Source of the DNA: Malacoraja senta
Taxonomy: Eukaryota
Direction: 5' to 3'
Assembly (NCBI GenBank): GCA_038087875.1
Contig: CM075993.1
Coordinates: 8,806,001-8,870,000 of the forward strand
DNA length: 64,000 nt
Positions 7,273 through 59,847 of this stretch are shown here, one piece after another. A program made the translations under genes and the position numbers. The notes below the pieces were generated by a model. That model had not been told where the DNA came from and ran no database searches. It saw nothing but the letters and a program-made list of their open reading frames with translations. Positions within the stretch are counted from its first letter, which is position 1. Every line of letters begins with the position of its first letter.

Positions 7273-7312
<40 letters not shown>

Positions 7313-16924: not shown

Positions 16925-17115
16925 ACTTATGGGTGAGTGGTGGAATATTGCGTTGGGCGAACGGGTTACATTGGGGGAACGGGTGATGGGGGTGATTGGC
17001 TCCGTCTCCCGGGTGAACAGCGAAGCCGCGTTCGGGGACCAGCCCTCCCAGGTGACGCAGCGCCTCACCTACCCCGCGTTAGGGGACGGGGCCCAACGGG
17101 TCCCGCTTGGTCTAG
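16925..17115 (+). mobile_element. Helitron-like element, 3' end
   Basis: GGTGAGTGGTGGAATATTGCGTTGGG motif, GGGCCC-AAC-GGGTCC hairpin, then CTAG|T. Confidence 0.7.
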
Positions 17116-18104
17116 TATACTATTAAAAGTTTTGTCTAGTTTATCTGTCTGTCTGTGAGATCAAGGAACTATGCCAAAACAGTACACAACAGTGCGAACA
17201 TTTTTGCAGAATGTTACTCAGCTTTTTCCCCTGGTCGTGAGTATCAAGTTTTTTCACATTTGATGTTATATTTCACGTTATTGATATTTAAAGTTTAAAA
17301 TAAACCAACTTTGAAAATAATAACTGCCTGTGAGAGTGAGACTTTTCCAGCAGCTTCCAGTGATGATGTCAAAATGCCACCTCACAGTCGTCCAATCACA
17401 ATTTGATCTAATTTACACAAGCTGCCGTGAAGATTCCGAAAACGGAAAATGACATCATAATAGGATCTCTGCTGCTGATCTCTGTTATAAGGAGAGGGAC
17501 TTAGTGTGGGAGATTTACAAGTTTTAAAGTGACATTTAAAAGTTGGATTTCTTCAAATCTGCATTGGCGGTTAGGCAGTTATGACGTCACAATGCCCTAC
17601 AATGTTTCCATCCCAGAACACTGAGTCCTTAACAGCAAATGTCCTTCAGGGAAAGAATCTGCCAGCCTAACCCAGCACAGCAAAGTTAATTAGATTTTGA
17701 TAACAAAGGGGAAGAATCTGCCAGCCTATACCAGCACAGCAAAGTTTAATGATTAGATTTGGATAACAAAAGATGGCCTTGTCAGTGGCACCTACATCAC
17801 ATTAAATCTTAGTGCAATTGCATTCTTTTAAAAGTTTAAAATGACCTGCACAGTTGGGGGCTCTGGGTGAGTGGTGGAATATTGCATTGGAAACGGGTTG
17901 CGTTGGAGGAACGGATGAGTGGTGGAATCTTACGTTGGGGAACGGGTTGCGTTGGGGGACTAGGCCTCCCTTGGGGGCTTTGGGTGGGTGGTGGATTATT
18001 GCGTTGGGGGAACGGGTTAGGTTGGTGGAACAGCTGAGTGGTGGAAACGGCCAGTCACTTTTTATGCCGCAGCCTTAAAAAGTGACTGACTGACTTTGTT
18101 ATTA

Positions 18105-18540
18105 TTTTATTTTTTAATTTAATTTTTTTTAATTTTATTAGAAGTATTGTACATTACAGTAATCTCCAATAAACATAAGTTTATACTTTTCTTGTACCAC
18201 TTCTTATTTTAAACTTTAATAAGAGAAAAGGATAGAAAGAGTTAGTAAAGATAGTAAGTGAGTGATTGAAAGAGTGGTCCAGGAACACCCATATGGACCT
18301 AAACCACAAGAAATTGTTTTAAAAAAAAAGAGAAAAACCAAAAGGAGGAAAAAGAAAAAATAAGATAAGATAGGACAATATGAAAGGGATGTACCTACTT
18401 CATATCTTTACTCACCCCTCGCCAGGTCCTGAAACCATTTATTATCAACATTTTGCTGCACCCTATGTTTGTAATATGTCGATAAATGGAGACCAAATCT
18501 TTTGGAATTGGTCTGGTTTACCTGCTATAGTTATTTTAAA
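18105..18540 (-). mobile_element. Short L1 3' end (different family)
   Basis: GKPDQFQKIWSPFIDILQT* followed by a pyrimidine-rich UTR and AATAAA plus A-rich tail on minus strand. Confidence 0.75.
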
Positions 18541-19209
18541 ATGCCGTGCGTGCGCATGCGGTCCGGAGGCGCAGGAAGGGGAGGGAGAGGTAACCAGCCG
18601 CACGAGGGGGGAAGGAGAAGCAACCAGCTGTGGGAGGGGGGGAAGGAGAGGGAGAGGCAACCAGCCGCAGGGAGGGGGGAGGAAGAGGGAGAAGCCTCCC
18701 TGCGGACCTGGACCAACAGCCCCTGGACCCCGCACCGGCTGGAATCACAGCCTAGACACAGGCGGCTGAACACAGACACAGACACAGTTATTTCAAAATA
18801 ACTGAAAGTCAGTCAGTCCCTTTTTTTGTAACATTGTTGTAAGGAGAAGGACGGAGTGGGGGAGGGGATGAGAGGATTGTTGTTTAATTTTATTTAAACA
18901 GATAGAGGGAAAGGAGGGTTATGGAGGGAGGGAGAGAGTGACTGAGGGTAGGAGAAAGGAGAGGTGAGGGAGTAGGGAAAGGGAGGAGAGGGGAAAGAAG
19001 ATGGAGGGTGAAGAGGAGGAGGAGGGAGTACTGGGGACAGGCATGAGACAGGAAAAAAGAGGAAGAGAGATGGGGTTCCAGGAAACATTGCCCCCGGTAG
19101 GATTTTTTTTTGATAATTGTACCTTGAAATGACAGTTTTCTTGCCTGTTTACCCATAATTTCTCGCGGGGTCTTCCCCACTCACAGGACCCCCCCCCCCC
19201 ACCCTTACC

Positions 19210-19480
19210 TTTGCTCACACACACAGGGACCTCCTCACTGCTCACAGGAAACCCGCCACCTTTGCTCACTCACAGGGAACCCCTCACTGCTCACACTCAC
19301 AAGAACCCCCTCTCTGCTCACACTCTCAGGAAACCCCTCACCTTTGCTCACACTCACAGGTACTCCCTCACTGCTCACACTCACAGGGAACCTCTCACAG
19401 CTCACACTCACAGGGACATCCCCTCACCTTTACTCACACTCACAGACTCCCCCCTCTGCGCACCAGGGCTCACACACACT
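19210..19480. repeat. ~30-bp minisatellite (TGCTCACACTCACAGGGAACCCCTCAC-like)
   Basis: About 8 degenerate tandem copies. Confidence 0.85.
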
Positions 19481-20182
19481 CTACTTGCTTTAAAACGCAT
19501 ATTGACACCGACAATGCCCGGCCCTCCAGCCACGCCACGACCTTTCCCAGCCCAGTGCCCACTCTCGCGCTGCCTTCCCCCAGAGCCGCCGCTAACTGCA
19601 CTCTCGGCCCCGGCGCCTCGTTCCACCAGGCCTCGCCTTCTCCTCCAATCACCACTCTCTATCATCAATCCTGCCCCCCCCCCACTTCCACCTCTGACCG
19701 ACGCCTCCCTCCTCCAATCATCGCACTGAATCATCATATCCTGCCCCAATGCCTGCTGACCGACATCCCTCTCGTCCAATCAATGCCCTCGATCATCAGT
19801 CCCACCCCCACTGTCTTGCAGAAAGCCATTTAGAGATTTAGATTATTTTAAAACAAATTTTGAAATCCGCGGAAATCTGCGGGTCCGCGGAGAAATCTCA
19901 TGCCTGTGGGGATGAGGGGAAATGAGTCGCGCCTGAGCAGTTGGGGGCTATTGGTGAGTGGTGGAATTTTGCTTTGGGGGAACGGGTTGCGTTAGGGGAA
20001 CAGGTGAGCGGTGGAATATTGGGCTGGGGGAACAGGGCCCAACACTCCCACTTGGTCTAGTAAGAAATAAATGTTGGCCTTCCCAGCAATGCTCAGATCC
20101 CCAAAAAAGTTAACAAGAAAATTTAAGAAAATGTATTTCTTTGTTCATTATATATTTCATCAGCACTGGAAAATAAAAACAA

Positions 20183-21030: not shown

Positions 21031-21505
21031 CAGGAATGATTCAAGTTCCAGAATGGAATGGGTGAAAAGGCAAAGAGTATCTGTGATTGAGTGCAGACCA
21101 AAGGTAAGATGGAAGAGATAACAACAGAAACCTACTGAAACAGAAAGATACAGCCCCATCTGTGGACGGCGATCTGAAATTGTTCACTTCATAAACTGTC
21201 CCAAGTACGGCAATATGACCATACGAAAGATGAGGTACTTTTCTTCACGCTTTCGTTGGGCAAAGTTGAAGCAATCTAGAAAGCTGAAAACAGAGGCCAG
21301 AACGCAAATGGGGCAGAGAATTAAAGTAACGGGTGACTGGAAGTGCCCTATGAACTAAAGAAGGCTGATCTGCAAAGCAGTCATCCAATTTGTTTGTTTT
21401 CTGCAAAGCCGACACTTCATGGTTTTTGTTTTAAATATGTAAAACAGTGGTTTTTAATATTAAAATCAATATATTTTAGAATATATGTATTGATCCACAA
21501 CTTAC

Positions 21506-21631
21506 CTTCACATTTTTGCGTTTCTTCACTAAATCTATGTCCAGCTGGGCATTTGCATTCAAAGGATCCCACGGTATTTATGCAATTTCCCCCATGACAG
21601 CTCCCTGGGATAGCTTGGCATTCATCCACAT
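21506..21631 (-). CDS. FBN2: Fibrillin internal exon, calcium-binding EGF domain 1, 126 bp
   Basis: (D)[41 protein letters not shown] with cbEGF consensus and 6 Cys. Acceptor ctttggtag|AT, donor G|gtaag. Splices in frame (phase 1) to the 39561-39758 exon. Confidence 0.9.
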
Positions 21632-22488
21632 CTACCAAAGAAAGTAAAAATATTTAATTGAATTGTCCTGCAGTTTTCACCAATCATGCTATTGCAGTAG
21701 TACTTACCACCACATTTATTTATCTTTAATGCTCAACGCAAAAAAATTAAGTTACGAACTGAAGCTGTTGAATTTTCTGTGGTCCTGTACACCCCCTCCC
21801 TTCCCCGCGGAAGTGTACAGCACAAGATACAATCGTTCACATTCTCTACACAATGTACTTCCTAGTATTGAAACAAGTGTTTTTTTTCCGGTTGTGGCTG
21901 ACACCAAAAGGAAAACTGATTGAAAAAGATTGTTAACTTGATTATATTTCAACATAATCTAAAGTTTTGAAATTTAAAGAAAGGGATTTCACCACTAAGT
22001 GAAAGTCGGTCCTCTTTTAATTTCTTCCCACATTGCTGTGATTGGGACAAATGGAGCTCGCAAATGGAAATAACTTCAAGCAACAGTTAATCTCACCAAT
22101 GGATTTGATGGAACTCTCTTTGAATCTCAATCATTTTCTTTTGTAGATTGTTGCTTCTGAGTCAAAACAATTACTTTTTAACTTTAATTTTAATTCAAAG
22201 TCTCGTGACGAGACTACGTGAAGAACCCGCCAGCCCGTATGCGCATCAATACGTTGTCGCATGGAGTGAGATACGGATACGGATGCATTCGGAAATGCTC
22301 CGTCAGAGCTTTAACGGTGAAGGTAAGTTTTTTTTGCAGTAACAGTGCTTCTTGTTTCAATGTGGGTATGATTTCCAAAAATGGACAAACCAAGAAACAA
22401 GAAGAGATGTGCCGTTGAAAATTCAGTGGGGAATGACGGCAACAAGCGAGGTCGGTGGCCGTTGCTATCAAGCTCAGAGCAAGCGCGA

Positions 22489-22862
22489 CCTGCACAGCAA
22501 CCACCGCTAAAGCTCCGAAAGGGAGTAGCTTGTCTAGCGGGGCTCGGAGACGTGAACAGGCGCGGCCTGCACAGTTAACCTCCGTGAAAGCTCCGAAAAG
22601 GAGTAGCTTGTCGACCCGGGCTCGGAGACGCTGGCAGGTGTGGCCTGCACAACAACCTCCACGAAAGCCCCAAAAATGAGCAGCTTGTTGACCCGGGGTC
22701 GGAAATGCTGGCAGGTAGGGTCTGCACAACAACCTCCGCGAAAGCTCCGAAAAGGAGCAGCTTACGGACCCGGGCTTGGAGATGCTGGCAGGGCGGCCTG
22801 CACAGCACTCTCCGTGAAAGCTCCGAAAAGGAGCAGATTGTCGACCCCAGGCTCGGGGAAGA
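22489..22862. repeat. ~77-bp GC-rich tandem repeat, 5 copies
   Basis: Units start near 22489, 22566, 22644, 22721, 22797: CCTGCACA.CAACCTCCG.GAAAGCTCCGAAAAGGAG.AGCTTGTCGACCCGGGCTCGGAGA... Confidence 0.9.
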
Positions 22863-27207: not shown

Positions 27208-29289
27208 ATAAAGAGATAGCTTTATACATTCTATCTTTGTCCCGCCCCCTCCCCTGACATCAGTCTGAAGAAGTGTCTCGACCCAAAACGTCGCCCATTC
27301 CTTCTCTCCAGAGATGCTGCCTCACCTGTTAATTTACTCAAGCATTTTGTGTCTACCCTCGGCCACATGCCAAGCATTTCGAATCACAGATTTCACATTT
27401 CCTGCGTCTGCAATATTTTGATTTTTTTAAATAATTGTATGTAATAAAGGTCTTTTCAATTCTTTACCACCCATTAGAAGCTGGAAATTGAAGAAAAATG
27501 AGAGACATTTAGGCTCTGGTCAGGGAGACATGAAACAGATATAGGCAGCTGGAATCAAGTGTATCCCTGGAGGAGTTTCGGGAACAGAGGACCATACTTA
27601 AGAAGGAAATCAGAAGAATAGTGTGGACTCGACGTGTGGGTCGGGTTGCGGGCAGCGTCGGGGGAAAGTTGTGGAATTTTTTGTAACACACTCCCCCCCC
27701 CCCCCACCACCTTGTGCAGCCCAGTGGGACCGAAGATGGTGGCGCGCAGCATTCTCTTTCAAGCTGCTGCTGCCCTTGGCAATCGCCAACACAATATTCC
27801 ACCACTCACCAGTTCCCCCAACACAACCCGTTTCCACCACTCACCAGTTCCCCCAACGCAACCTGTTTCCACCACTCACCAATTCTCCCAACTCAACTCA
27901 CTCTCTCTCTCTTTCTCTCCCTCAATGGCGGAGCGCAGCATTCTCCTCCAAGCTTCTGCTGCCGTTACTGTAGGCAACCTCTTCTTCAAGCTGATACCGT
28001 TACAGTTGGCAACTTCCCATTGTGATGTCATTGTCACACTCGGCAGCTTGTGTAAATGAGAGCCCAATGTGATTGGTGGACTGTGAGATGGCTTAGTGAC
28101 ATCAACACTGGAAGCTGCTGGAAGACCGTCTCTCTCAGAAGCCATTTTTGGCTTTTTTATTTAAAACTTTAATCATCAATAACTTTTGAAATAGAGCATG
28201 AATTCTGAAGGGAACCTGATTATGGCCTGGACGTGAAAAATGTGAGTAAGAATGTGGAAATATTCAGCGCTACCGCGGAGCGTTTGACGAAGATACAATA
28301 AAATACATACACACATACATACAAGATGATGTTATGTATACTAGACGAAGTGGGACCGTTGGGTCCCTGTCACACGGGAAGACTGGTCCTCAAACGCAGT
28401 ATTCCACCACTCACCCATAGCCCCCAACTGCCCAGGGGTGGCTGACGGGTTCCCGTTGTGACGCCAGAGATCCCCGTTGTGACGCAAGTCACGGCAACCT
28501 TCCCCAACCGCGCCTCGCCATCTATCTTCCTACCACTATCCTCCTCCATTCCCTCTCATCCCCAACATTCCCTCCCCTTCCTCTTCACCATCCCCCTTCT
28601 CTCCCCTCTCCCCCATGTACCTAAACACAATATCAGTTGTTAATGAACAAAGATTAATTTGATCAAAATGGAGTCTTTCCTGTGGAATTAAATCACCCTA
28701 TCTTTTGGGGGGGGGGGGTGAATAGTTTGAGGAATGTTTGAACGATCGGAATAAAATTGGGTCTGCTCCCCCAAAGCACCCATTCCCTACCCGTAGCCCC
28801 CACGGGAGGCATGGTCCTCCAAATCAACCCAAACATAAGATTCCAGTACTCCTAACCCTCCCCCAGCATTGGACTTGAAAAAAAAATCCCAATGGCACTT
28901 CCCCAATTGCAATACCAATTGACCCTTCCCCTCCTGTCTTGCCAAGAGCTATGATGGCAACATTGTTGCAAATGTTTGGTGCACTTGCTGTGATATGCCA
29001 TTGAGGTGAAAAGTTCAGTGTTCCTGGAAGCTGTGAGGAATAATTTTAACAGTAAAAATCATTTAAAATTCTCAGTCTTTTGACGTTTTTAAACTTTAAT
29101 CAGTAATAAGTCGAGAAATAAAGCATGAAATGTTCACATAAGGTGATCCAGGCCTCGACGGGAAAAATGTTAATCGGAATATTTTAAAATGTTATCGTTA
29201 TCACGTAGTTTTCTGACAAAGATGTAAAGACAACCACATATACACAGACACGTACAAAGATCAGAGTTTTAATAAGGATATGGTATTGA

Positions 29290-29730
29290 AAGAATCAGTG
29301 GAATCAAGTTAAAAATGGAATTAGTGCAAGAAACGGAATAAAAGCAAGGTAAATCTTTTTAAAATGTTATATTCAAAGAATCAGTGCAAATCAAGTTAAA
29401 TACTGTGAGGTCTTTTTAAATAAATCTTATCTTTAAAGATCACAAAGTGAGAATAAAGCAGTCAGAATCAAGCAGTGCAGAACTCGATATGCAAAGAGTG
29501 CAAATCAAGTTAAAAACCACAAGGTCTTTTAAAATAAATCTTATCCTGATAGATCACGAAGTGAGAATGAAGCATCAGAATCATTAGTGTAGAGCTCGAT
29601 GTTCAAAGAATCTGCAGATCAAGTTAAAAACCTTAAAGATCGCGAATTGGGTATGAAGCAGTCAGAATCAAGCAGTGCAGAACTTGATGATGACTCGACC
29701 TCAAGCAGTGTAGAATTCGATGTTCACTCG
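29290..29730. repeat. ~110-118-bp degenerate tandem repeat (about 3 copies plus partials)
   Basis: Recurrent AATCAAGTTAAAA...ATAAATCTTATC...GATCAC.AAGTGAGAAT.AAGCAGTCAGAATCAAGCAGTGCAGAACTCGAT. Confidence 0.8.
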
Positions 29731-29857
29731 ACCGTTGGGGAGGTGGTGAAGCTGTTTTTGAAATGAGGCTCTTCCCCTGACGTCAATGGAAGGTGGTGGA
29801 ATATTCTGTGTGTGAAACGGGCGGCGACCTTCTCCCCTTGCGGGGGCATTGTGACGT

Positions 29858-31304: not shown

Positions 31305-32469
31305 TCACTGGAAGCTGGTGTCTGTGTTTTTAAATTTTGGCCTTTTTTTAAACTTTAATCATCAATAACTTGTAAAATATGGCATGAAATGTGAAGGTAA
31401 CCTGATTATGGCGTGGACGGGAAAAATGTGAGTAAGAACGTGGAGAAATTTCAGCACTACCGCGTAGCGTTTTGACGAAGATACAAATACACAGACGCAT
31501 AGATACATGCACACACATACAAAATGACAGTTTTATAAGTATACAGATAGATAGATAGCCAACACCTCAAAGTACATGAGATACCATTAGCACTGTGATA
31601 AATCTATCAAATCCATTGACCGGATAAGCATGCCGTTGTCTTTGCTCTTTTCAAAGCCCACATTGAGGTCTTACTGCACTCAGAAAGCTCCAATGGGCAA
31701 TTCATGTTATTCGTACGCCCGACACTGAACTCCTGACACTGGCACTTTATTCTAAGATCTATCATAGTAATAGAATACCAGGAATTCTTTCATGAATGTC
31801 CTCATAACCTTCTTGAACGTGCAATATCTCACAAACTCACAAAAATCCTGCTCTAGAAATATTCAAAGTGGAGAAGCAGCATCTGTGTTGGCTCTGAGAA
31901 CCTCCAATCATCAGAAACATGAAGAAGCCCATTAAAAAAAAAGACGGAGGAGCACAAAAGTTCTAAACTATCCATTTATTCACCCCATCAACCACCACCA
32001 ATGATAGTCCCCTAATGCCCCTGATTGGCCTCATGAAACACCGAAGAACATGTTGAGTGGAAGCCATTATCTTTATTCCTGAGGGATTTCCTAGGAGCCA
32101 GCAGTTGAGGAGAACCTTTGTGATGACCTTCCCTGTGGCTAAGGGCAGCGAAACCCTTCTATAGTTACTACAATTGGATTTGTCTTTTTCCACGAAGGAC
32201 ATGGAAGACAGTAAGATCTGTGTGACACGACACACAGATATGGGTCGGCACTTTGAGGTAAGCTGTGTTGGAGATCGCCATTTTAAATGCGGCCTGCACC
32301 GCATTTCAAATGCGGCCTCCAGCTACTGGCTCATAGCCCTGCAGGGAAAGCGGTGTAAACACACAGGGCGAGAATGGCAGATAGTCAGGGCAGCTCTAAG
32401 ACAGCCTGTCTGTAAACGAGGACTCGCTGTGATCAGTACAATGCCTCAATATTCCAGTCAGCGGAAAGC

Positions 32470-33790: not shown

Positions 33791-33799
33791 AGGACTGAA

Positions 33800-34759
33800 C
33801 TGGAGACTGCGGCGGCCGAACCCGCGATCTTTGGGTCGACGCCCACCCGCCGCCTGGCTCGGTGTCCTCGGATTGACGCCTGCCGGCCCGCGTCCTCGCT
33901 CGGGGTCCACGCCTGCCCGCATCCTCGCTCGGGTCCGCCGCCCGGCGCCTGGCGGAGGGGGGGCTGTTGCCACAGGCCGAGCCCGGCTCGACGTCCGCCC
34001 GCCCGCCCGGGGTCCTCGGGTAGACACCGTCCACGGCCTCCCTCGAGTCCACGTCTGCCCGCAGCATCCATCTCTCGACGATCGCCCGCCACCACGCCCG
34101 CCGTCCTCGGGTCGATGCACACCCATGGCCTCTCTCTGCCCTCTCTCTCTGCCTCTGCCCTTTCCCCTGTCTCTGTCCTCTCTCCCTGTCTCTTCACCCT
34201 CTGTCTCTGCCCTCCTCCCTCTCTAACCCCCTCCCTCTCTCTCTCTAGCCACGCCTGCGCAGTTGGTGGCTATGCGTGAGTGGATAGGGCAAGGGATGGG
34301 GTAAAGGAGCAAATGAATAATATTAATTTAATATCAAGGGCGGGGTTAGCGTGTGTGTGTGTGTGGGGGGCGTTAGTGTGTGTGTGGGTGGGGGTGGTTA
34401 GTGTGTGTGTGTGTTTGACGCCACAGGCCGCCCCCCTCCCAGGACCAACAAGTCCCACTTGGTCCAGTATACTAAACAAACATCCATCCGTCCATCCGTC
34501 CCTCCGTCCGTCCGTCCGTCCGTCCGTCCGTTCATCCATCCATCCATCCATCCATCTATCCATCTATCTATCTATCTATCTATCTATCCATCCATCCATC
34601 TATCTTCTGTGTGATTTCATGTGATCCTGAAATTACAGCAATACGATACAGTTGGTCTAGTTCTTTTTTAAGTCCTCGAATATTGCGTTGGGGAACGGGT
34701 TACGTTGGGGGACCAGGCCTCCTGTGTGACAGGGACCCAACGGGTCCCAGTTGGTCTAG
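33800..34759 (+). mobile_element. Two tandem Helitron-like units (3' ends at 34467 and 34759)
   Basis: CCCACTTGGTCCAG|TATACTAA junction; second end is the perfect GGGACCC-AAC-GGGTCCC hairpin plus AGTTGGTCTAG|T; CpG-rich repetitive cargo at 33810-34120. Confidence 0.65.
34480..34604. repeat. Compound (CATC)/(CGTC)/(TATC) microsatellite
   Basis: Directly visible tetranucleotide runs. Confidence 0.95.
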
Positions 34760-36830: not shown

Positions 36831-36939
36831 TAGGATTCAGTGAATGTCCCACTGTGTGCTCTGCTAACAAAAATCCCCAAATTGGTACTAAACAAAGTCA
36901 CTTTTCAGTAGGTTCCACCTAATGAAGAATCCAACCGTT

Positions 36940-39560: not shown

Positions 39561-39758
39561 CTTGACAAGCTCCAGTTCGGATATTGGGAATAAAGCCACG
39601 GCGGCATGGTTGTGGCTGGGCAGGGCACATCTCACAGGGATGTCCCCACGCTCGTCCAACTGTTGCGCAGCAAAGGGTTTTGGTGCAGACAATGCCACTG
39701 AGTTGCCCTTGGCACATTTGGTTGTTTACTGATGTGAAACATGGTCCAGTCCTGTAAT
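39561..39758 (-). CDS. FBN2: Fibrillin internal exon, first hybrid (TB-like) domain, 198 bp
   Basis: Translates to (D)[65 protein letters not shown], near-identical to vertebrate fibrillin hybrid domain 1. Acceptor ttttag|AT, donor G|gtaag. NNQ and AQPQP favour FBN2, SGIV/TVGR are FBN1-like, so the paralog call is less sure than the fibrillin call. Confidence 0.9.
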
Positions 39759-46933: not shown

Positions 46934-47626
46934 AAATTAATAGTATGAATTAATTCTAAAACACTAGAATTCCACGGTTAATGGAGGTTTGGCAGATTAG
47001 AGCCATTCCAAGCAGTGTTTTGTTTGGGATGGCTAGACTGTTATCTATGGAATTTTGAATCAAGGACACTCTCTGTTCAAAACGAGTAAACAGCTGAACT
47101 GAAGTGAATGGTATATACCAGAAGTATTATCTGTTTAATAGACTACAATATTAAATCCAATTGTAAGAATTCATCCTATTAACAACCTAATAAGTTATCT
47201 ATGTTAGATTATAATAGCTACGGACGCTAATAAAAATAAAAAAATAAAAAATAACGAACTAACAAAACTAATATGAATTTTTACTAAATTCAAACCTTAT
47301 CTATAACTGGGAGGAGGGGATGAGAAACGAGCACCTGGCTTAGGTCCAGGGGCACGTCTCGTTAACCCCTTCAACCAACAGTTGACTATTATTGAAGTAA
47401 AAATCATTTGTTTAATAATTAGTAGCTAAAATTGCGATATATACATGATATGTTATAATGAAATATATAGGGTAAACACATAAACTCACATGTTTGTGTT
47501 TTGTGTTTAGTGATAAGCGTAAAAGGGATATACCAACAAAACTTAGAAATTCAAAAGTTCCCCCAATACCTAAAGACCTGGGATATGGATGCACCACAAG
47601 ATTTAAAGGTACTATAATTATTCAAA

Positions 47627-50600
47627 ATGCAAGATGCTAAGCAAAAGAACCTAGGAGGAGTCTCATTCTGTAGTTGGAATATAAGAGATACTAGCTCAGC
47701 TGAAACTGTACAATTCTGACATTATCTTCTTATAAGAAACTCATCTAAAATCTCATGATCAAGCTAGGTTGAGGGCGAAATGGATAGGTCAAACATACAA
47801 TTCTTCATTTACTTCGAAATCTAGAGGTACGTCAATCATTATAAGAAAAGGTATACCATTTAAAGCAAAGAATACCATAACAGACATCGAAGGGAGATAC
47901 TTAATAGTTAATGGAGAAATTCATGATACTCCAATTACCTTGGTAAATATATACGCGCCTAACTTTGACAACCCTCATTTTTTCAATAAAATTTTGAACA
48001 TAATCGCAGAGTCCAACTATCAAAATGTTATAATAGGAGGAGACTTTAACTGTGTTTTAGATCCGTATTTAGATAAATCAAGCCAAAAACAGAGAGGGAA
48101 TACGAAATTTAAAACCGGTGAACTTCTAAATACTTATATAAACAATACTAATATAGCATAAGTTTGGAGAATTGTTAATCCAACTGGCAGGGAATACTCG
48201 TTTTATTCAATGGTACACAAAACATACTCACGTATAGATTATTTCCTGGTGGACACAAAATTAATCCCTCATACTTTTAACCCAACATACCATACAAATT
48301 CGATTTCAGACCATTCACCACTAACTTTCTTTTTAAAACTGGAAGGAATGTCTAAGAATAAACCGTTTTGGAGATTTAATTCTCACATCCTAAAAGATCC
48401 ACGAGTATATATTTAAAAGAACAAATGGATGCCTTTTTAAAAAATAAATGACACTCCAGATATATCGCCTACTGTATTATGGGAATCTTTTAAAGCATAC
48501 ATTAGAGGTATTATAATTTCATATCAAGCTTTTCAAAATAAAAATAATAATAATGAACAAAGACAGTTAGAGGAACTTATTAGACAAATGGATATAGATA
48601 ATGCTAAAGATCCATCAATAGATAAACATAATAAAATAATAATTTTGAAATTTAAATTAAATAAATTATTATCAACCAAACTGATAAGACTTTTTCAAAT
48701 TACAAAACAAGAGCACTTTGAATTTGGGGATAAACCGCATAAACGTTTGGCTCGCCAGCTAAAAAAACGAGAAAAAGAACATATGATCCCAAAGATTAAA
48801 TCAGATAGAGGGGAATTATTAACCATACCGAAGGATATTAATAAAAGATTTGCGCAATTTTATGAGAATTTGTATACATCTAAAACGACAACTGACTCCT
48901 ATAAAATTAGAGTTTTTGGATAATTGTAATCTTCCAAAGTTAGAGTTGAAGGAACAAGAGGAATTGGGAGCACAAATCTCAATTAAGGAATTAGAAGATA
49001 CAATAAACTCATTAAAGAATGGAAAAACACCAGGTCCTGATGGATTTACTAATGAATTTTATAAAAGCTTCTATGACAAAATTATACGATTACAAAAAAT
49101 GTACCAATATGCTTTTAAAAAACAAATACTACCTGATACATTAGCTGAATCAACGATTACACTAATACTTAAAAAAGACAAAGTTATAGAAGAACCGGGT
49201 TCATATAGAGCTATAGCATTGTTAAACACAGATCAAAAAATATTAGCGAAAACACTAGCTAGAAGATTAAGTAAATATATTAGTAAACTAATAAACCCAG
49301 ATCAGACGGGGTTTATCCCTAAGAGATATTCATCTAACAATATGAGACGTTTACTCTACATAATGCACTCACATAAATCTGAAGAACAAGAATTATCAAT
49401 TATTTCGCTGGACGCTGAAAAAGCATTTGACCAAGTAGAATGGAATTATATGGATAAAGTATTACAAAAATTCAAACTGGGAGAGAATTTTATTTTATGG
49501 ATTAAACTATTATATAATAAACCTACAGCTAGAATATTAACTAATAACATATTATCCTCGAAATTTCAACTATCAAGGGGAAATAGACAAGGATGCTCAT
49601 TATCACCACAATTGTTTGCTTTTATAATTGAACCGTTAGCAGAAAAAATTAGAATACATCCTGATATCCATGGGTATAATACTAAATATTCAAATAATAA
49701 AATATCTTTATATGCGGATGATACATTACAAAACCTCAAATCACTATACCAAATATATTAAATTTAATTGAAGACTTTGGATCTTTTTCTGGGTACAGAA
49801 TAAATTGGAATAAAAGTGAAATTATGTCAATAAAACCGAAAGATGCAACACATCTTTTAAAATTCCCTTTTAAAATAGCCACAGAAAAATTTAAATACCT
49901 GGGAATCGAAATTACTAGAACATATCAAGGTATGTTTAAAGCAAATTTTGATCCTCTACTTAATAAATTAAACACACTAATTAAATTTTGGGAAACTCTC
50001 CCGATGTCTTTAATAGGCCGAATAAATGCAATAAAAATGATCTTCCTACCACAAATTATATACCTATTTCAATTGATTCCTATATACCTACCAAAGAAGT
50101 TTTTTTTTAAACTGTACTCAGATATTACTAATTTTATATGGGACTATAAATCACATAGAATACAAAGAACACACTTGAACAAACCTAAAGTATTAGGGGG
50201 CTTAGCACTCCCTAACTTCATGTATTATTATTGGTCAGTAAATATTAAAAATATGATTCAACTGATGGATAACTCTGCCCAGCAAGTGGACTGGATTGTA
50301 ATGGAGAGAGAGGACTGCTCCTCTGGAAACATTGGAGCGATCCTCCTCTCACCAATGAAACTGAATAACATAAATTATAATAAGAACCCAATTATACATA
50401 GTACAATCAGAACTTGGAAACAAATAAAACAAAATTTAAAATTAAGAAATTTATCACTTTTAACTCCCATAGTTAATAATCCTTCGTTTAATCCCTCTAT
50501 TACAGATAAATCTTTCACACAATGGGATAGACTAGGAATTAAAACGTTCGGTGACCTGTATGAAACTGGAAAATTACTATCATTTCAACAATTACAAATA

Positions 50601-51363
50601 AAATATAAACTCGGAAATAATCAATATTTTAAATATTTTCAAATATGTGACTATTTGAAAAAATATACAAAAGATCATTATAATAGCCCAGCAGATGTAT
50701 TGGATGATGCAATGCAGATAAAAGCTGAATCAGCAAACTTAATATCATATTTGTATAATATTATCTTAAATGTAGAAATACCATCTACGGAAGGTATTAG
50801 AAGAGACTGGGAACAAGAATTAGCTATTAAAATCTCAAAGGAAAGGTGGAATGAACTTATTAAACGTGCATAAATGTTCGATTAATGTAAGACACACTTT
50901 AATAGAATTTAAAATTTTACAGATTATATTATTCCAAAACTAAAATTAATAAAATTTTCCCAAATGTATCATCCATTTGTGATAAATGTCAATCTCAAGA
51001 AGCTACTATAGCGCACTCATTTGTTTTCTGTACAAAAATCCAAAAATTTTGGATTGAAATTTTTGAAATCTTTACAAAATTATTTAAAGTAAAACTGATA
51101 CCCAAAGTAGAATGGATTATCTTCGGAACAACGGAAGATAGTCCAGAACTAAATGTGTTCCAAAAGAAATTAATAGACTATGGGTTAATAACTGGAAAAA
51201 AGCTAATCCTAAAATTTTGGAAAAATGCTCCAATACCAACTATAAACATGTGGATTTCAAATATGTTCGAAACATTACACCTAGAAGAGATAAGCTCCTG
51301 GCAGGTAAACCAGATCACTTCCACCTGACGTGGTCTGCATTTATAGAATTATTACAAATATAG
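47627..51363 (+). pseudogene. L1 ORF2 (APE endonuclease plus RT), multiply frameshifted
   Basis: SWNIR, NIYAPN, GGDFN, YSRIDY, SDH, KTPGPDGF, SLDAEKAFD, RQGCSLSP, LYADD spread across several frames. Confidence 0.92.
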
Positions 51364-51877
51364 GGTTCAAAAGTACTTTAAAAAAACTGATGTCAGGTAA
51401 GGGGAGATGAAAGTTGGAGAGTTGGTATGTCCCATTTGCGTGATGCTTACAAAAAAGTATTTGTTTTTCTCTTTTCCCTTTTTCTCTTTTTTCTTCTTTT
51501 TTAGGGTCTATTTCTTAACTCTTTTTCTTTTGTTTTTAATTTCGTTCTTATAGGGTCTTTGTTCTTTCTTGTTGTCACGTTTTTTTACACTTTCACCTTT
51601 TTCCTTCACTTTCTTCTTTCTCTCAATCTCATCCTTTCCCTTTATTGGTGTAAAAAACTAATAAAGTTTATAACGGAGTACATTAATTGTAATAAGATAT
51701 ATGTGACGAGTATTAATGTATGTGGTTGCAACGTAATGTACTTCTACTAAATAAAAATAAAAAAATAAAAAAAATAAAAAGCCGGACAAACAGACTCAAG
51801 AACAGTTTCTTTCCCATGGCCATTAGAACTCTAAATTCCTCAAGTATCCACACGACATGAGAATGCTGTCATCAATT

Positions 51878-52860
51878 TAGGTATGTTACAATACTTACCT
51901 TCAGCGGCGCTGCAATTCTGCCACTGGCCGTGTGTGCGATTTTGGCGCCTTTGAGGGGGGGCGGGGTTAAAACGCGGGTTTCTCCTACCTTGTCCTGAAT
52001 TATATTTCGTTGGAGTGCAAGCTTTTGCTGAAGAATCGTTCCGACGGGCGTTTTGTGTATTTTTTATTTTTATTCGCCCGACAAGTTCAGCGCTGGAGTT
52101 ATTTTAAAATCAGCTTTGAAAGCCGTTTATTTTATGTATAAAAGTGCTTCTTAAGAGGCCTTTAATTCACATTTTAAAATGCGAAACGGTGATTCTTTTC
52201 CACAAACTAACGGCAGTATTTTTCATGCCGATACGGGGTTAAATTCTCCGCAAATCAACGTTCCAAATGATCGCGTTCCAAAAAACCCCACTCGCAAGAT
52301 GATTTAAATGCCCATTAATTTACAGGTATTAAACATTAAATTCCTTCCATTTGGCCTATAAATCCATGACAATGAGATTTAAAAATTATGTTATATTGTG
52401 AATTCTTGTGTGAATGTTATTTGGACACTTAGGCTATTTAAAAATGTTAATCTATTCTTAAGAAATTGATAGTTTAGATCTAGTAATTGAATTTTGTAAT
52501 TAGCTACAATTAGGTAACTAACTAATTATATGCTTTAATTTCATGTCATCTAAGTAAGATTATTTCATATTTGATTCAGAATGCTTCAATCTATAATAAC
52601 TGAAAATTTCTTTCAGTTCTCTTAATTTTTAAGAAAGTTATGGGCTTTAGACTGTTCTCGATCACAGCTTTTGCGTTAAGTCAATGGAAAAGCAATAGGG
52701 AACAAGATGCTAATTTCCGAGTATGAAAATGGCCATAACTTTTTTAATACTGAAGATTTGAAAGTGAATTAGGTGTCAAATTAAACGTCTTTTTATGCTT
52801 TATCTGATGGGATAAATTAGACTTGATTTTTAAAATCTCAAAAATGTTGTAACATAGCTA
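51878..52860. mobile_element. Non-autonomous TIR DNA transposon (hAT-like), copy B
   Basis: TIRs TAGGTATGTTACAA/TTGTAACATAGCTA; flanks ATCAATT/ATCAATC; inserted in the Rex1 3' UTR. Confidence 0.8.
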
Positions 52861-53104
52861 ATCAATCCACTATAAAACAGACCACTCAGTTAATATTTCC
52901 TCTTTAAAAAAAAATTCTTTTAAAGTATTTACTAAATTTAATGTAATATTCTCCCAGTGCAAAATAACGTATTGAATGTGACTTTGTCTTGTTTGGACTT
53001 GTTTTGGTTGCACTGATCAGGAGTAGCTCTCCTAATTTTGTTATATTTCTAAGTACAATGACAATAAAGGCTTATTATTATTATTATTATTTTATTATTA
53101 TATT

Positions 53105-54265
53105 TATCTATCTATCTATATCTATCTGTATACTATTAAAAGTCTTGTCTTGTTTGTCTGTCTGTCTGTCTGTGACATCAAGGAATTACGGCAAAACACA
53201 ACAGTGCAAAAATTCTGGCAGAACCTTACAGCTTTTTCCCTGTGGTCGTTCGTATCAAGTTTCTTCATATTTGATGTTATATTTTACAAGAAACTTTTTT
53301 AAACTTAAAAACTCAAGATTTTTGGAATAAAGGGGGAACTACGCCAAAATGGTACACGGTAGCGCATAACATTTTGCATCACCTTACGCACCTTTGTCTC
53401 GTGATCGTTCCTGTCAAGTTTCGTTCAGATCGGTGTTATATTTCACAAGTTATTGACACTAACAGTTTACAAAAAACACTTTGAGAACAATAACTTGACA
53501 GATGCTGTGACAGTTGATGGGAGATTCTGGCAGTTTGCAGCTATGATGTCACAATGGGATCTCACAGTTCTCCAATCACAATGGGATCTCATTTACATAA
53601 GCTGCCGTGAACAGTCCTTCACCCGACAATGACATAACAATGGGATCTCAGCTGCCAATCAACAGTGTTAAAGAAGGAACTGCAGATGCTGGAAAATCGA
53701 AGGTACACAAAAATGCTGGAGAAACTCAGCGGGTGCAGCAGCATCTAGGGAGCGAAGGAAATAGGTAACGTTTCGGGCCGAAACGTTACCTATTTCCTTC
53801 GCTCCATAGATGCTGCTGCACCCGCTGAGTTTCTCCAGCATTTTTGTGTACCTGCCAATCAACAGTGTTGGGATAAGCTCCACCCAGTGCAATGATAGAT
53901 TTCTTATATTGTTGTAAGGAGAGGTAGCGAGTGGGGGAGGGGAGGAGAAGAAATGTTATTTAAACATTGTGTTTAGTGGGGGAGTGCAAAAGGGGAAAGG
54001 TGAGGGAGGGAGTGACTGAGGGTAGGGAAAAGGATAAGGAGAGGTGAGGGAGGGAGTGGAGGAGGGGAGAGAAGAGGGACGATTGATTGGCTCCGTGGAG
54101 TGCCAAAGCCGCCCCCAACGTGGTTTCATTAAAACAATTTAAACTTTAAAAACGTCAGCCGCGCCTGATACTTGGGGGCTATGGGTAAGTGGTGGAATAT
54201 TGCGTTGGGGGAACGGGTTGTGTTGAGGGAACGGGTGAGTGGTGGAAATGGGTTGTGTTGGGAGT
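53105..54265 (+). mobile_element. Helitron-like element lacking a recognisable 3' terminus
   Basis: TCTATC...TATACTATTAAAAGTCTTGTC start, colinear with 17116-17480; ends in GGTGGAATATTGCGTTGGGGGAACGGG repeats. Confidence 0.6.
53670..53851. mobile_element. Penelope-derived near-perfect palindrome with 18-bp TSD
   Basis: Arms 53701-53776 and 53778-53853 with one mismatch; CTGCCAATCAACAGTGTT at 53652-53669 and 53852-53869. Confidence 0.9.
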
Positions 54266-54724
54266 TGATGGGCATATAAGAGAGAGAATAGGTTACAGGG
54301 AAAATCACATTGACAGGAATGCTCCAAGAGCCAGCATGGACTCAATTTACTGAATGCTTTCTATTTTGTAAGAAAATATAAAATTAAAATATAAATATTT
54401 GCTGGACTTACATTTTAAATTAAGTCTTACATTTTGGTGGATGGCAGCAAAATTGAAATCAACAAAAATCATTTGGGGAAAATGCCCCACAGTATGAAGA
54501 TACACAGATCATTAAGGAAGATTGTTGTGTTTTTTACTGGCCTAATGTCTCGCCCCAGCACTCATTGCACTTCTAATGTGCAATGTCCTACAATCATCTT
54601 TAGCAGCTTTATCAAAGTCACATGTTCATCAAAATATCAAACAGGAGAATATTTTTAGAACAGTGTTCTGTTCTATTCACAAATCTTCTGATAACAAAGC
54701 AGTCAGCAAGATCTAGACAACATA

Positions 54725-54927
54725 CAGGCATCGGAAGCGTCAAGGAAGACTACGAGGGAGCTCCAATGCGGAGATCACGTGGATGCTCTGGCGCGATGAC
54801 CGGGGTGCTCCGACACCGAGACCACAGGAGAGCTCCTACACGGAGACCACATGGGCGTTAGTGAGCAAAAATAATTGCTTACATAAGTGTGAGTTTACAT
54901 AAGTTGTCTTAAGTCAGCGAATGCCTG
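54725..54927. mobile_element. Possible Tc1/mariner (Tigger-like) MITE remnant
   Basis: TA|CAGGCAT...ATGCCTG|TA with TTACATAAGT subterminal repeats at the right end; only 7 bp of TIR match. Confidence 0.45.
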
Positions 54928-55303
54928 TATTAACAATTTAGTTGATGAGCCTGTCTAATGTATGCACGTTTGTAGACGATACAAAGCTAGGTGGCAGTAC
55001 AAGCTGTAAGAGGGATACAAGAGGGTACAGTGAGGCTGTGAATTGGTGAGGACGTTGCAGATGGCATAAAATGTAGATAAATATTAGGATAAACCACCTA
55101 GTAGACAAAAATAGAAAAGCAGATTAAAAGGTTTTTTAAAAGAGATTATTCATCCATAGAGTCCTTACTACCTCAACATACAGGTCCACCTCAGTGAAGT
55201 GTTTGTAACCCGGACAATTCATAGCAGAGGATGCGTGTAGTCCCGCTGCAACTGGCAAATCCACTCTGTTGGTCACCCAAACACTTAATCATACGACAGA
55301 GTC

Positions 55304-56185
55304 TCCCTAGTCCTCACCTTCCACCCCATACAGTACATAATCCCTAGTCCTCACCTTCCACCCCATACAGCATACATCTGCAACGGGATCCTACCACTAG
55401 CCACATCTTCCCATCTCCACCCCTTTCCACTTTCCACAGAGATCGCTCCCTCCGCAACTCCTTGGTCAACTCGTCCCTTCCCACACAAACAACCCCCTCC
55501 CCAGGTACGTACCCCTGCAATCGCAGGAGATTCACTCGCACCTCCTCCAACCTCATCTACTATATCTGTTGTTCCAGGTGTGGACTCCCATATATCGGTG
55601 AGACCAGGCGCAGGCTCAGCAATCATTTCACTGAATACCTCCGCTCAGTCCACCTAAACCTACCGGTTGCTAAACACTTTAAATCCCCCTCCCATTCCCA
55701 CACTGACCTTTCTGTCCTGGGGCTCTTCCAATGCCAGAGTGAGGCCCAGCACAAATTGGAGGAACAGCACCTCAAATTTCGCTTGGGCAGCTTATACCCC
55801 AGTGGTATGAACATTGACTTCTCTAACTTCTAGTAATCCTTTCTTTCCCTCCCTCTCCATCCCTCTGCCTTCCCAGTTCTCCGACCAGTCTTACTGTCTC
55901 CGATGACATTTTATCTCTGTTTGCTTTGTTGTTACCTTCTCCCAGCTAACAATGGTCTGTTCTACATTTTCCTTGATCTACATTTGCTTTGTCCTGTTTT
56001 CACACTTCACACTTCACACTTCCTTATCTATGTATCTCCCTCTCCCCTGACATGAGTCTAAAGAAGGGTATCGACCCGAAGCATCACCCATTCCTTCTTT
56101 CCAGAGATGCTGCCTGTCCTGCTGAGTTACTCCAGCATTTTGTGTCTATCTTCGGTTTAAACCAGCATCTGCAGTTCCTTCCAAC
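55304..56185 (+). mobile_element. Penelope-like element 3' part (GIY-YIG plus pLTR)
   Basis: ORF 55462-55833: SSNLIYYICCSRCGLPYIGETRRRL..H..VAKHF..LEEQHL..LGSLYPSGMNIDF; pLTR follows. Confidence 0.88.
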
Positions 56186-56339
56186 ACTTGATCATACGTA
56201 CAGGCTTTGCTTAAATTGTGTGTTCGTAACCTGGAGAGAAACTGCAAGAACAATCCAAACCATCCAACTCCTCATCCTCTCCCTAATACACCAAACAAGT
56301 CTTTGCTTTCTCATAATTATCCAGTTTCTTTTTGAATCT

Positions 56340-57365
56340 GACCCCTGGCAGTACCTTCCTACTATGACTTCCTCCTTACTATGATACTCAATTCAAGACT
56401 GATGAGGACAAATGTGCCAAAAGCCTTCTTCAACACTCTATCTACCTGTGATGCCACTTTCAGGGAACCACATACTTGGACTCCTAGATCTCACAGGTCT
56501 GCAACACTCCCCAGGCCCCTACCATTCACTATGGTCCTGCCCTAATTTGTCGTTTCAAACTGCAACATCTCACTCTTTTGTGCATTAACTGCTCGGATAG
56601 CTGATTAAGATCCTACTGTAATTCTTGATAAATCGTCCTCACTGTATACGATACCACCTATTTTAGTATAATCTGCAAACTTATAAATCACCTTGTTCAT
56701 TCTCAACCAAATCATTGATATAAACGACATGTCGAATGATATAGAAAGAAATGGGCCCAGCAACAACCCCCGAGGCATAACCTTCCGCCACCACCATTTG
56801 CTTCATACCGTGAACTGGATTCTGTATCCAGTTGAAGACACAAAGTGCTGGTGTAACACAGCCTGCAGGGTCAGCCTGGGTCTCTGGAAAACAGGGATAC
56901 GGGATGTTTTGGGTTGGGACCCTTCTTCAGAATGAGCGCCAAGGGAAAAAAAGCTACAAGAGGATTGGCAGTACAAGCTGACTCTTCATCTGTATCAACC
57001 TATTACCTGCGAGGCTTTGTCCTGCCCTCCTCTCTTCCAGCTTTCTTTGTGTCTTTTGCAAACCGTCATCTGCAGTTCCATGTTTCTGTATTCAGTTTGG
57101 TAGCTAGATCTCCCTTCCAGAGCAGCCTACCATGTGGAACCTGAAGTCCATATCAACTTTCTTGATTGCTTCTTCAAAACTCTAAGCAATGTACAAGACA
57201 CGATCTCCCACATACAAAAACATGCTGTCAGTCCCTAATTAACTCCTGTCTATCCAAATTCATGTACATCTTATCCCTCAGATTCATGTCCAGTAATTTC
57301 CTACCACAGATGTTAGGATTACTGGTCTACAATTTCCTGGCTTTTCTTTTCAGCCCTTCTTAAAT
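56340..57365 (-). mobile_element. Old CR1 RT fragment with nested Penelope-derived repeat (~56835-57090)
   Basis: Reverse-strand CR1 motifs (AAAGCCTTCTTCA, ATCTGCAAACTT, TCCCTAATTAACTCCTGTCTATCCAA). Confidence 0.6.
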
Positions 57366-57661
57366 AGAGAGCATATCTTGGCACCAAGACATCTCCACGT
57401 TAGTTATGGAGAAACTGCAGGAAATTAGCATTGAGGTAGAAGATGATCAGTGATCTTAATAAATGGAGGAGCAATCACAATAGGACAAATGGCCTACAGC
57501 CAGTCCTATTTCATACTGCTTTTTCATCGACCTTTCCTTCATTATCAGATCCGAAAGTGGAAATGTTCAGTTAATTGCACAAACTACAATCATTTGCAAT
57601 AATTTAAATCATGAAACAGAATATGCTTGTATGCGGACCGAGTTGGAAGTTATATTTCTCA

Positions 57662-58645
57662 CTAAACCAAGTGCGGACCCTTTGGGTCCCGTCCCCCAAC
57701 GAAATATTCCACCACTGCCCCCAACGATAGTTCCCGTTGTGACGCCAGAGATCCCCGTTGTGAAGCGAGTCATGGCAACTCTTCCCCAACTGCGCCTCGC
57801 CATCCCTCTTCCTACCCCTATCCTCCTCCATTCCCCCTCATTCTCCAACACCTCCTCCCCCTCCTCTCCATACTCCCTCTTCTTTCCCCTCTCTCCTCCC
57901 CCACTCCCCCCTCTCCTTTCCCCTACCCTCAGTCACTCCCTCCCCCCTCCCCCCTCCCTACCCCCCTCTATCTCCCTGCTCCCCACTCCTCACCTCCCCC
58001 TATCCCACTCCCCCTCCTCACCTCCCCATTGCCCTCCTCGCCCTCTATCCCCCACTCCCTACCTCCCCCACTCCCCCTCCCCTCCTCCCCCACTCTCCCT
58101 CCCCTCCTCCCCACTCTCCCTCCTCACCTCCCCACCTCTCCCTCTATCCCCCTGCTCCCCCACTCACCTATCCCCACCCCCCACAATGAAAATTGCAATT
58201 TAAAAAAAAAATGACACCTCCCCCCTATCCCACCCCCCACAATGAAAATTACGATTTTTCTTTAAAATAACCTAACCACAATGCTCGCTGTTAATGAAAA
58301 CGGAAGAATTTGATTAAAACTGATTTTTATTTTAAATCACGATTTTTAAAAATGTAAATGAGATTCAGGATCCCATTGTGACGTTGAATGCTGCTGACGG
58401 GCAGGGAAAGTGGAAAAGTGGTTTGAAATTTGATTTTTGTAAAGTTTCAATGTCAATAACGTAAAATATAGCATCAATCCGAACAAAATTTGTTTCTTTT
58501 ACATACCAGGATAATGGTGAGTGAGGTGGGCAAAATATTGTAGCACTATCGTGTACTGTTTTGGCGGGGTTTTGGAATATCGCGCACATGCACGCATACA
58601 TACAAACAAACAGGATTAGAGTTTTAGTAATATATAGATAGATAT
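57662..58645 (-). mobile_element. Complete Helitron-like non-autonomous element
   Basis: 5' TCTATCTATATATTACTAAAACTCTAATC; 3' GGACCC-AAA-GGGTCC hairpin plus GCACTTGGTTTAG|T; shares a 3' block with 28341-28620; long purine tract inside. Confidence 0.7.
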
Positions 58646-59279
58646 AAGATTGCAGACTGTAGACTTTATACAACAAGAGTGACTAACCACCACTAGTGCT
58701 CAAATACATTTAATATTACCATTACCAAGCCCCACAATATTGCCAAATGATAGCTATGAAACTAATTGTCTACCTCACCAAGGCATATTTTCACCATCTA
58801 CAAGGCAAAAACAAGAATGTGATTAAATATTCTTCATTGCTTGGATAAGTGCAGCTCCAACATCACCTAAAGAGCCATGCAGTGGTCACTTAATTGGCAC
58901 TCTAACTATTACCTTAATGTTCATTTTACCATCAACAGTGACCATGTTTGCAGTGTACACTTCTAGAACGTGCAGTGCTACAGCTCACCACACCATCTTC
59001 AACAGCAGCTCTCAAACACATGACCATTACCACCTGGAAAGACCAGTAGAAACTGTGCAAAATCACCACCACCTGTAAATTTTTCACCCTTCATGCATTC
59101 ATATTGAGTTTCTTTCACCGTATCCAACAATTCTATTAGAATACTATTACGAACAGAATGAAGCAGTTCAAATTGGTGGCTCATTATCAGTTCATGGGAA
59201 GACAAATGGCACTCTTGGATTTATTGAGTTGAATAGCTTGTTTCAATGCTGCAAATACTATTTAACATCTAATTTAATA

Positions 59280-59847
59280 TCATATCATATAACTATTAAA
59301 ACTCTGATCTTGGATATGTGTGTGTGTATAATCACATCTTCTCAAAGAAACAACACGCTAACGGTAAAATGTTTACATATTCCGGTAGAGATTTTTTCCG
59401 TGCAGTCCAAAATTGCCTTATCTGAAAAATTCATGCTTTATTTCTCAAATTATTAATGAAAATGTTTAAAAATACTTTGAATTTAAAATGGTTTTAACTT
59501 TAAAATCATTCCTCAGAGCTTCCAATACACTTCGATACAAAGTTGCAAGACAGCAACACTGAATTTTTCAGCTTAATGGCATCTAACAGCAAGTGCACCC
59601 GACATTTGCAACAATGTTGCCATCATAGCTCCTGGCAGGACAGGAAGGAGAGGGTCAATTGGTATTGCAATTGGGGATTGATTTTTTTTTTACTCCAGCG
59701 CTGGGGGAGGCTCACGAGCTATGATCTTTGCTGAGGAGTGCTCGAATCTTACCTTCGGCAATGGGTTGAGTTGGAGAACCACGCCTCCCATGGGGGTTAC
59801 GGGTAGGGGACAGGTGAATTGGGTCAATGGGTCTGCACTTGGTCTAG
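59280..59847 (+). mobile_element. Complete short Helitron-like element
   Basis: 5' TCATATAACTATTAAAACTCTGATC; 3' GCACTTGGTCTAG|T; homologous to the reverse complement of 28740-29281. Confidence 0.7.

Follow-up and report, generated by a model that had tools for sequence, protein, structure and literature searches.

We analyzed a 64,000-nt stretch of contig CM075993.1 (assembly GCA_038087875.1, positions 8,806,001 to 8,870,000; hereafter the window) in which dispersed Helitron-like repeats lie in the introns of a fibrillin gene. An earlier note on this DNA had described the repeats as a single non-autonomous family with fixed termini and variable cargo. We resolved eleven pieces, comprising five copies with both ends paired on one strand (E3, E5, E9, E11, and E12; 292-2,945 bp), four pieces with only the 5' end (E1, E6, E7, and E10), and two with only the 3' end (E2 and E8). 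Where ~10 kb had previously been attributed to the family, the copies cover 8.9 kb including nested inserts, and 5.2 kb of that matches another copy.

The leftmost piece, E1 (7241..7621, plus strand), is a 5' core with a (TG)n run, for which the 3' end was not found; it scores an E-value of 2.5e-53 against a profile built from the copies themselves and is 75-77% identical to E7 and E6. E2 (16925..17115, plus) is a 3' fragment with a subterminal motif, an 8-bp stem at 17087-17105, and CTAG, and it adjoins E3 (17116..20060, plus), a composite that combines a 5' core without a leading TC, a purine tract, a 27-bp tandem array, and a degenerate hairpin before a CTAG followed by T. E3 is 73-86% identical to E10 over five blocks, and it holds an internal subterminal block without a hairpin (17845-18050) as well as nested inserts. 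One of these (18052..18826, not assigned to a strand) has a perfect 13-nt inverted repeat in addition to inverted arms of 21 nt (95%) and contains a minus-strand L1-like 3' tail piece (~18100-18525), of which 18457-18525 is 81% identical to 51301-51369. The arms of this insert carry GACT/AGTC repeats and lengthen when the tail piece at 18100-18525 is left aside; with the 13-nt repeat at its left end, the insert resembles a miniature inverted-repeat transposable element or a HINE.

On the minus strand, E5 (28341..29283) is a complete chimeric copy with a 6-bp stem and a CTAG followed by T. Its first 514 nt are 70% identical to E12 and stop at a cut-off pseudo 3' end at ~28770; beyond it, a purine tract is followed by a block that is 87% identical to E11. 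Tandem arrays of 114-bp and 33-bp units occupy 29369-29733, just upstream of the E5 start. Directly after the CTAG of E5 lies E6 (27780..28340, minus), a 5' core without a leading TC, with subterminal repeats at 27786-27897 and neither hairpin nor CTAG. E7 (31325..31551, minus) consists of the 5' core only and is truncated beside the 3' tail of a CR1/L2-type long interspersed nuclear element (LINE).

E8 (34247..34467, plus) is a 3' fragment with the subterminal motif, (GT)n, a short stem, and CCAG, and it adjoins E9 (34468..34759, plus), a 292-bp unit with a TATAC start, a (CATC/CGTC/TATC)n run, and a perfect 7-bp stem (34732-34748) that lies 11 nt before a CTAG followed by T. A CpG-rich block (33790-34246) of 29-bp repeats and then a CT-rich tract stands directly before E8, and a 5' end was not found there. 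Within E9, TTGGTCTAG at 34652-34660, followed by T and without a hairpin, is possibly a relic 3' end. E10 (53121..54262, plus) has a 5' core, a duplicated core (53334), a purine tract, and subterminal repeats, with no hairpin or CTAG, and is interrupted by a palindromic high-copy repeat (53652..53869, not assigned to a strand) that is 98% self-inverted over 153 nt and bears an 18-bp target-site duplication (TSD; 53652 and 53852). The last two copies are complete: E11 (57662..58642, minus) begins with TCTATCTA-TATA after an A and has a purine tract, a 6-bp stem, and a TTAG followed by T, and E12 (59284..59847, plus) is an old copy that has lost its left hairpin arm and ends in CTAG followed by T, with ~20 nt downstream that resemble the 5' start of these repeats.

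All seven 3' ends proposed in the earlier note lie where it had placed them (17115, 20060, 28341 on the minus strand, 34467, 34759, 57662 on the minus strand, and 59847), and they have in common the sequence ACTTGGTCTAG, with one- or two-base variants. The terminal tetranucleotide is CTAG in five of the seven and a one-base variant in the other two (CCAG at 34467, TTAG at 57662), as expected of ends of the CTRR type. The next base is T at every end, compared with 58 of the 230 CTAG sites in the window (p ~6e-5). A 17-mer built from the ends has five matches in the window at up to three mismatches versus 0.11 in shuffled sequence; because this pattern was derived from the copies themselves, the comparison is a post hoc one. 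A 25-nt subterminal motif, unnamed in the earlier note, occurs 10 times versus 0 in shuffles and is often repeated upstream of the hairpin. The hairpin itself, previously ascribed to all seven ends, in degenerate form in some copies, was recovered in part: a stem of at least 6 bp stands 10-13 nt before the end at 17115, 28341, 34759, and 57662, and at the other three ends (20060, 34467, and 59847) it is interrupted or shortened. Such a stem at the same spacing precedes 13 of 225 other CTAG sites (p ~3e-4). A compensatory hairpin variant in the E5/E12 subfamily, suggested by a left arm in E5 and a right arm in E12, was not counted, since no single copy has both arms.

These 3' ends also bear on whether the repeats could be SINE-like retroposons or 3' pieces of LINEs, whose hairpin would serve as a recognition site for reverse transcriptase. 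The window is full of LINEs, E2 and E8 lack a 5' end, and E12 shows a possible 7-nt duplication, all of which would fit retroposition. However, no poly(A) or repeat tail follows the CTAG at any of the seven ends, and none of them gives a BLAST match of at least 40 nt to the LINEs of the window. In four copies it is the 3' end that is missing and the 5' end that is kept, which is the opposite of retroposon truncation. The RNA polymerase III B box is absent from all nine starts, and there is one stray A-like match; a tRNA scan found none, and Rfam gave no match at its gathering score and none of relevance. Moreover, a true TSD is obvious on the palindromic insert in E10 and is absent on four of the five paired copies. 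We therefore regard a retroposon origin as very improbable. Scans of metagenomes with two patterns returned no matches, and two matches in a viral scan, which lack a hairpin and have G after CTAG, were dismissed as chance.

The 5' starts are less uniform. About nine had been claimed; eight related cores of ~200 bp align at 50-79% identity, each with a TATA block, TAAAA or a variant of it, and a TG-rich microsatellite, and the ninth, at 34468, is weak, being limited to the TATAC block plus a (CATC/CGTC)n run (profile E-value 2.7). A reading with TC after A fits all six free starts, and one with A followed by TCTATCTN-TATA fits four of the six, with the boundary picked by eye; the three starts that directly abut the 3' end of another copy lack the TC. 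Beyond the known ends, the next-best profile match has an E-value of 0.48, and thus no further ends were found in the window. Because the profiles were built from the same copies, their strong matches are circular and speak only to the absence of additional ends.

The earlier note had seen neither TSDs nor terminal inverted repeats. The latter absence holds in all five paired copies, where the best inverted matches between the ends are 6-8 nt and within the range of shuffles, and no TSD exceeds chance in four of the five; E12, with a 7-nt candidate, is the exception. Two of the five copies in this test begin directly at the end of another copy. The structure of the ends also permits a comparison with HINE/DINE-1-like non-autonomous Helentrons (HLE2), which an HLE2 RepHel would move into sites between two Ts. 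This alternative is favored by the tetranucleotide-type microsatellite after the 5' end and the 3' palindrome, as in Cg_HINE (PMC7492417), and by the (CGTC/CATC)n run of E9. On the other hand, HLE2 elements are defined by paired subterminal inverted repeats (subTIRs) of 11-15 nt, and none of the five paired copies shows a subTIR or a 5' inverted repeat beyond the level of shuffles. The ends are of CTAG type and their flanks lack T runs, and the four Chondrichthyes rows of the HELIANO table all list HLE1 (PMC11417382). An HLE2 identity accordingly has little to recommend it, and we give it only a slight chance.

Canonical Helitrons (HLE1), as defined in PMC11417382, start with TC, have a short hairpin plus CTRR at the end, occupy a site between A and T, and lack terminal inverted repeats. 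The claim that the repeats are non-autonomous and Helitron-like is borne out by their end anatomy, by the absence of subTIRs, polymerase III boxes, and open reading frames (ORFs), and by the repeat depth in four organisms described below. We conclude, with a probability of about 90%, that they are old non-autonomous canonical Helitrons, which an autonomous element's RepHel protein encoded elsewhere in the genome would have copied by rolling-circle transposition. Several observations weigh against this assignment. The hairpin is intact in only four of the seven ends, and its folding energy relative to shuffles is unexceptional in six for DNA this rich in G (z between -1.1 and +0.8); the z of -2.15 at 34467 comes from a different pairing. 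The TC starts were placed visually, and the T after CTAG could be the element's own. In E12, ATATCAT occurs near both ends, offset by one base, a coincidence expected in 0.7% of random pairs, or ~3.5% over five tests; either a duplication or what is left of a start sequence could explain it. No empty site was seen for the target between A and T. No joint skipping E11 or E12 is among the 15 listed of 5,666 for 52500-60500 in the four runs, and this list, like the 24 of 15,339 loose ends, is dominated by other repeats and is uninformative either way. No autonomous partner with these ends is present among the ORFs of the 64-kb window, to which the search was limited, and gene capture, a hallmark of Helitrons, is absent from the copies found there.

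The last two points rest on 357 of the 363 window ORFs of at least 60 aa (six with N were excluded). None of the 357 encodes RepHel, a helicase, a Helitron protein, or a captured exon. No Pfam domain lies inside any copy, and the single match of that scan, a GIY-YIG domain at 33429-33752, belongs to a neighbor. The idea of captured cargo finds no support: the interiors are modules common to the copies, simple repeats, and later inserts or nested transposons. E3, E5, E10, and E11 all have the purine tract, and contigs joining the pre-terminal block of E10 to that of E11 number 10-15 per run in all four runs. Of the tandem arrays, which had also been counted as interior, the 27-bp array is inside E3, and the 114-bp array (29383-29632) falls outside any pair of ends, upstream of the E5 start at 29283 on the minus strand.

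Nor can the termini be called fixed. By the rule cited in PMC4224331, members of one family are 80% or more identical across the final 30 nt; only seven of the 21 pairs of 3' ends reach this value, the ends of E8 and E12 reach it with no other, and only one of 36 pairs of 5' starts reaches 80% over 30 nt. The 3' ends as a whole therefore do not form one family, for which age may account in part. The pairs below 80% point instead to a clan of subfamilies, with core groups E1/E6/E7, E3/E10, E5/E12, and E11. Judged from its sequences, the clan is best described as a set of old, chimeric subfamilies and not a single family.

To gauge abundance, we used four sequencing runs from four organisms (X1, X2, X7, and X23) aligned to 52500-60500 at 85% likeness, which give depth and not copy number. 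In X23, the summed depth is ~9,700-45,000 over seven bins touching E11 and E12 versus 31-68 in three unique bins, and the contrast recurs in X1, X2, and X7, so that the repeat bins exceed the unique ones hundreds of times in all four runs. The pieces listed for X23 are identical to the window, and this run may be the source of the window and not independent of it. With seven 3' ends and eight 5' cores on both strands and this deep repeat signal, the clan is present in many dispersed copies. The 3' junction of E12 plus its flank is bridged by one X1 contig (61 letters), and since X1 is a different organism, the E12 insertion should be older than the split between the two. Bridging was accepted from 31 letters upward, which leaves the right edge of E10 in X1 and X2 (29-30 letters) and the X7 alignment into E12 (17 letters) below the rule. 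Among the contigs listed, the X1, X2, and X7 alignments stop at 57438-57482 and none crosses the flanks of E11, an observation that was not counted as evidence. Taken together, the decayed hairpins, the nested inserts, and the shared E12 junction make the copies look old.

The one odd feature of the clan is that three of the seven 3' ends directly abut another copy: E2/E3 (17115/17116), E5/E6 (28341/28340), and E8/E9 (34467/34468). In each, TATAC, which in free copies stands behind TCTATCTN, comes immediately after the end, and 59847, with TATATC next to it, is a fourth candidate. Among 225 other CTAG sites, only one has TATA next. The joined partners differ, with 61% identity between the E5 and E6 cores and 74% and 81% between the 3' ends of E8/E9 and E2/E3, respectively. 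With unlike partners joined and the 5' TC missing, the junctions are likely nested insertions instead of rolling-circle concatemers. The simplest explanation, though we hold it to be less likely than not, is that the clan targets its own start and inserts at one fixed site between A and T in the 5' terminus, between TCTATCTA and TATAC. Such self-insertion would produce joints of CTAG with TATAC as well as stacked TCTA units before free starts, and stacked TCTA units do stand in front of the free starts E7, E10, and E11. Several points count against self-targeting: TCTA runs are also produced by microsatellite slippage; the argument depends on n = 3 junctions; and nested insertion should have left the displaced TCTATCTN upstream of E5, the sole junction donor that has a 5' end of its own, where it is absent.

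That same absence upstream of E5 favors the alternative that the junctions are rolling-circle concatemers or imprecise circle junctions moved as a unit, or that some subfamilies truly begin with TATAC and not with TC. Plant and bat Helitrons are known to form head-to-tail junctions and tandem arrays, and in one assay roughly half of the circles made by Helraiser had an aberrant junction (PMC5876387), a result that likewise speaks against self-targeting. Yet the joined units are unlike, where concatemers would link like ones, precise Helraiser junctions retain TC (PMC4778049), and all three junctions here are in the same register; we give this alternative less than even odds. In maize, Helitrons have already been reported to insert into or close to other Helitrons (PMC3288121), and hence, should self-targeting be correct, only the fixed register would be new.

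For the clan as canonical Helitrons, we propose a mechanism modeled on Helraiser (PMC4778049, PMC5876387), of which the window displays the sequence outcome. RepHel supplied in trans would nick before the 5' TC and displace one strand, pause at the hairpin, and cut after CTAG, whereupon a circle would form and the copy would be joined into a site between A and T without duplication. Where the hairpin is missed or damaged, RepHel would run on to a later 3' end; read-through of this kind could account for the internal 3'-type blocks of E5 and E3, which have parallels in the chimeras of maize and bats. Chimeras such as E5 and the three joints of CTAG with TATAC may have arisen when a copy inserted into or next to an existing one.

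Among described systems, Helraiser and the Helibat elements of Myotis resemble the clan in their TC-type start, a palindrome ~11 nt before CTAG, and T after the end (PMC4778049), and in having short non-autonomous copies with mixed interiors and end-bypass chimeras (PMC4778049, PMC4224331). Unlike them, the clan has no captured host exon or autonomous copy in the window, and its junctions lack the 5' TC that precise Helraiser junctions keep. The maize helA and helB elements are similar in the ATC...TTAAAA start (helB) and in the hairpin and CTAGT end, and multiple 5' and 3' ends are reported for 28.7% and 17.6% of helAs, respectively (PMC3288121). Most maize elements, in contrast, bear gene fragments, and of 100 internal 3' ends in maize, 99 have no intact CTAG (PMC3288121), whereas CTAG is kept at two of the three junction ends here. 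Insect Hel-2 shares the TC and CTAG ends, the 3' stem-loop, and a microsatellite close to the 5' end, either (CTGT)n or (GTTT)n, but differs in its predicted 5' inverted and subterminal inverted repeats (PMC4344730), of which the clan has none. The HLE2 elements HINE, DINE-1, and Cg_HINE are alike in their 5' microsatellite, 3' palindrome, and internal tandem repeats (PMC7492417), and unlike in that the clan ends in CTAG and lacks subTIRs, with no T runs at its ends.

The nearest relatives may be sought in skates and rays. Repbase holds two HLE1 elements from Amblyraja radiata, Helitron-1_AmRa and Helitron-2_AmRa (PMC11417382, tables S1 and S10), and HELIANO counts 11,154 HLE1 insertions in Leucoraja erinacea, 4,818 in Mobula birostris, 1,651 in Hypanus sabinus, and one in Carcharodon; insertions were counted in four of the eight chondrichthyans sampled, with at most one in the sharks sampled (PMC11417382). 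These records indicate that this kind of element is known in the likely host lineage, to whose HLE1s the clan belongs by group, as compared by name and not by sequence. The suggestion in the earlier note that the repeats may be undescribed is thus doubtful. Helitron-1_AmRa, Helitron-2_AmRa, and the batoid HLE1s would be the most likely autonomous partners. A 12-nt piece of the 3' end does not occur in the text of the supplement to PMC11417382, and in the literature covered, which did not extend to most subscription journals or to Repbase Reports, we found no description of these ends and no paper on Helitrons in Amblyraja.

The host gene is represented by two exons on the minus strand, both bounded by AG and GT: a fibrillin hybrid/TB-domain exon at 39561..39758 (PDB 5MS9, fibrillin-1, E-value 3e-40) and a calcium-binding EGF exon at 21506..21631. 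They lie ~18 kb apart, and we take them to be consecutive; exons shorter than 60 codons are possibly missed by the ORF scan. Among the matches listed (120 of 145), the highest identity to a fibrillin exon is 98%, in the shark Heptranchias perlo. The window is also dense in LINE pieces with reverse transcriptase and endonuclease domains. A near full-length L1-like LINE occupies 45899-51780, with an ORF1 of 344 aa and an ORF2 broken into several frames, and a 1-kb piece of its 3' part recurs at 1877-2902 with 90% identity; ORF1 has four matches, of which the only one with a species name is from the skate A. radiata at 40% identity. Together with the shark match of the fibrillin exon, this points to a cartilaginous fish, probably a skate or ray, as the host, at the level of the group and not of the species. 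An ORF fragment at 14937-15269 on the minus strand, without a Pfam match, resembles that end of a non-LTR element which encodes a restriction-like endonuclease.

A very high-copy 190-bp repeat is found at 53652-53869 (the insert in E10), at 9911-10108, and in about a dozen more copies. It is fully palindromic at 53701-53853 and near 9937-10052, has an 18-bp TSD at one site, and often stands beside GIY-YIG fragments (33104-33752, 55527-56187). A hammerhead-like core motif has five matches at up to three mismatches. In Rfam it gave only seven sub-threshold hairpin-type matches and none at the gathering score; classification as a SINE was rejected since the repeat is palindromic, and it is presumably related to Penelope elements. 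Other features of the window are a GC-rich 77-bp tandem array of 4.9 copies at 22479-22856, with no Helitron end nearby; a dispersed repeat in three blocks at 43427-44622 and 51883-52860, 75-84% identical and unrelated to the Helitron ends, which is very deep at 52500-53033 in all four runs; and an assembly gap of 200 N at ~62120-62320.

For annotation, the sequence shared among copies makes up ~8% of the window, or 14% once nested inserts are included. Elements whose conserved ends are this short easily remain unclassified. Cartilaginous-fish genomes are reviewed as LINE-dominated with few DNA transposons (PMC6817897, PMC10115646), a picture that contrasts with the thousands of HLE1 copies that HELIANO reports in three batoids, and a curated description of the subfamilies would date the batoid HLE1 expansion. 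If self-targeting proves true, it would build ordered chains of mixed subfamilies and new chimeras by end bypass, and the choice of targets by RepHel in a vertebrate could be read from natural sequences; a fixed site in the clan's own start would then provide a sequence-level rule for the known tendency of Helitrons to insert into or close to one another.

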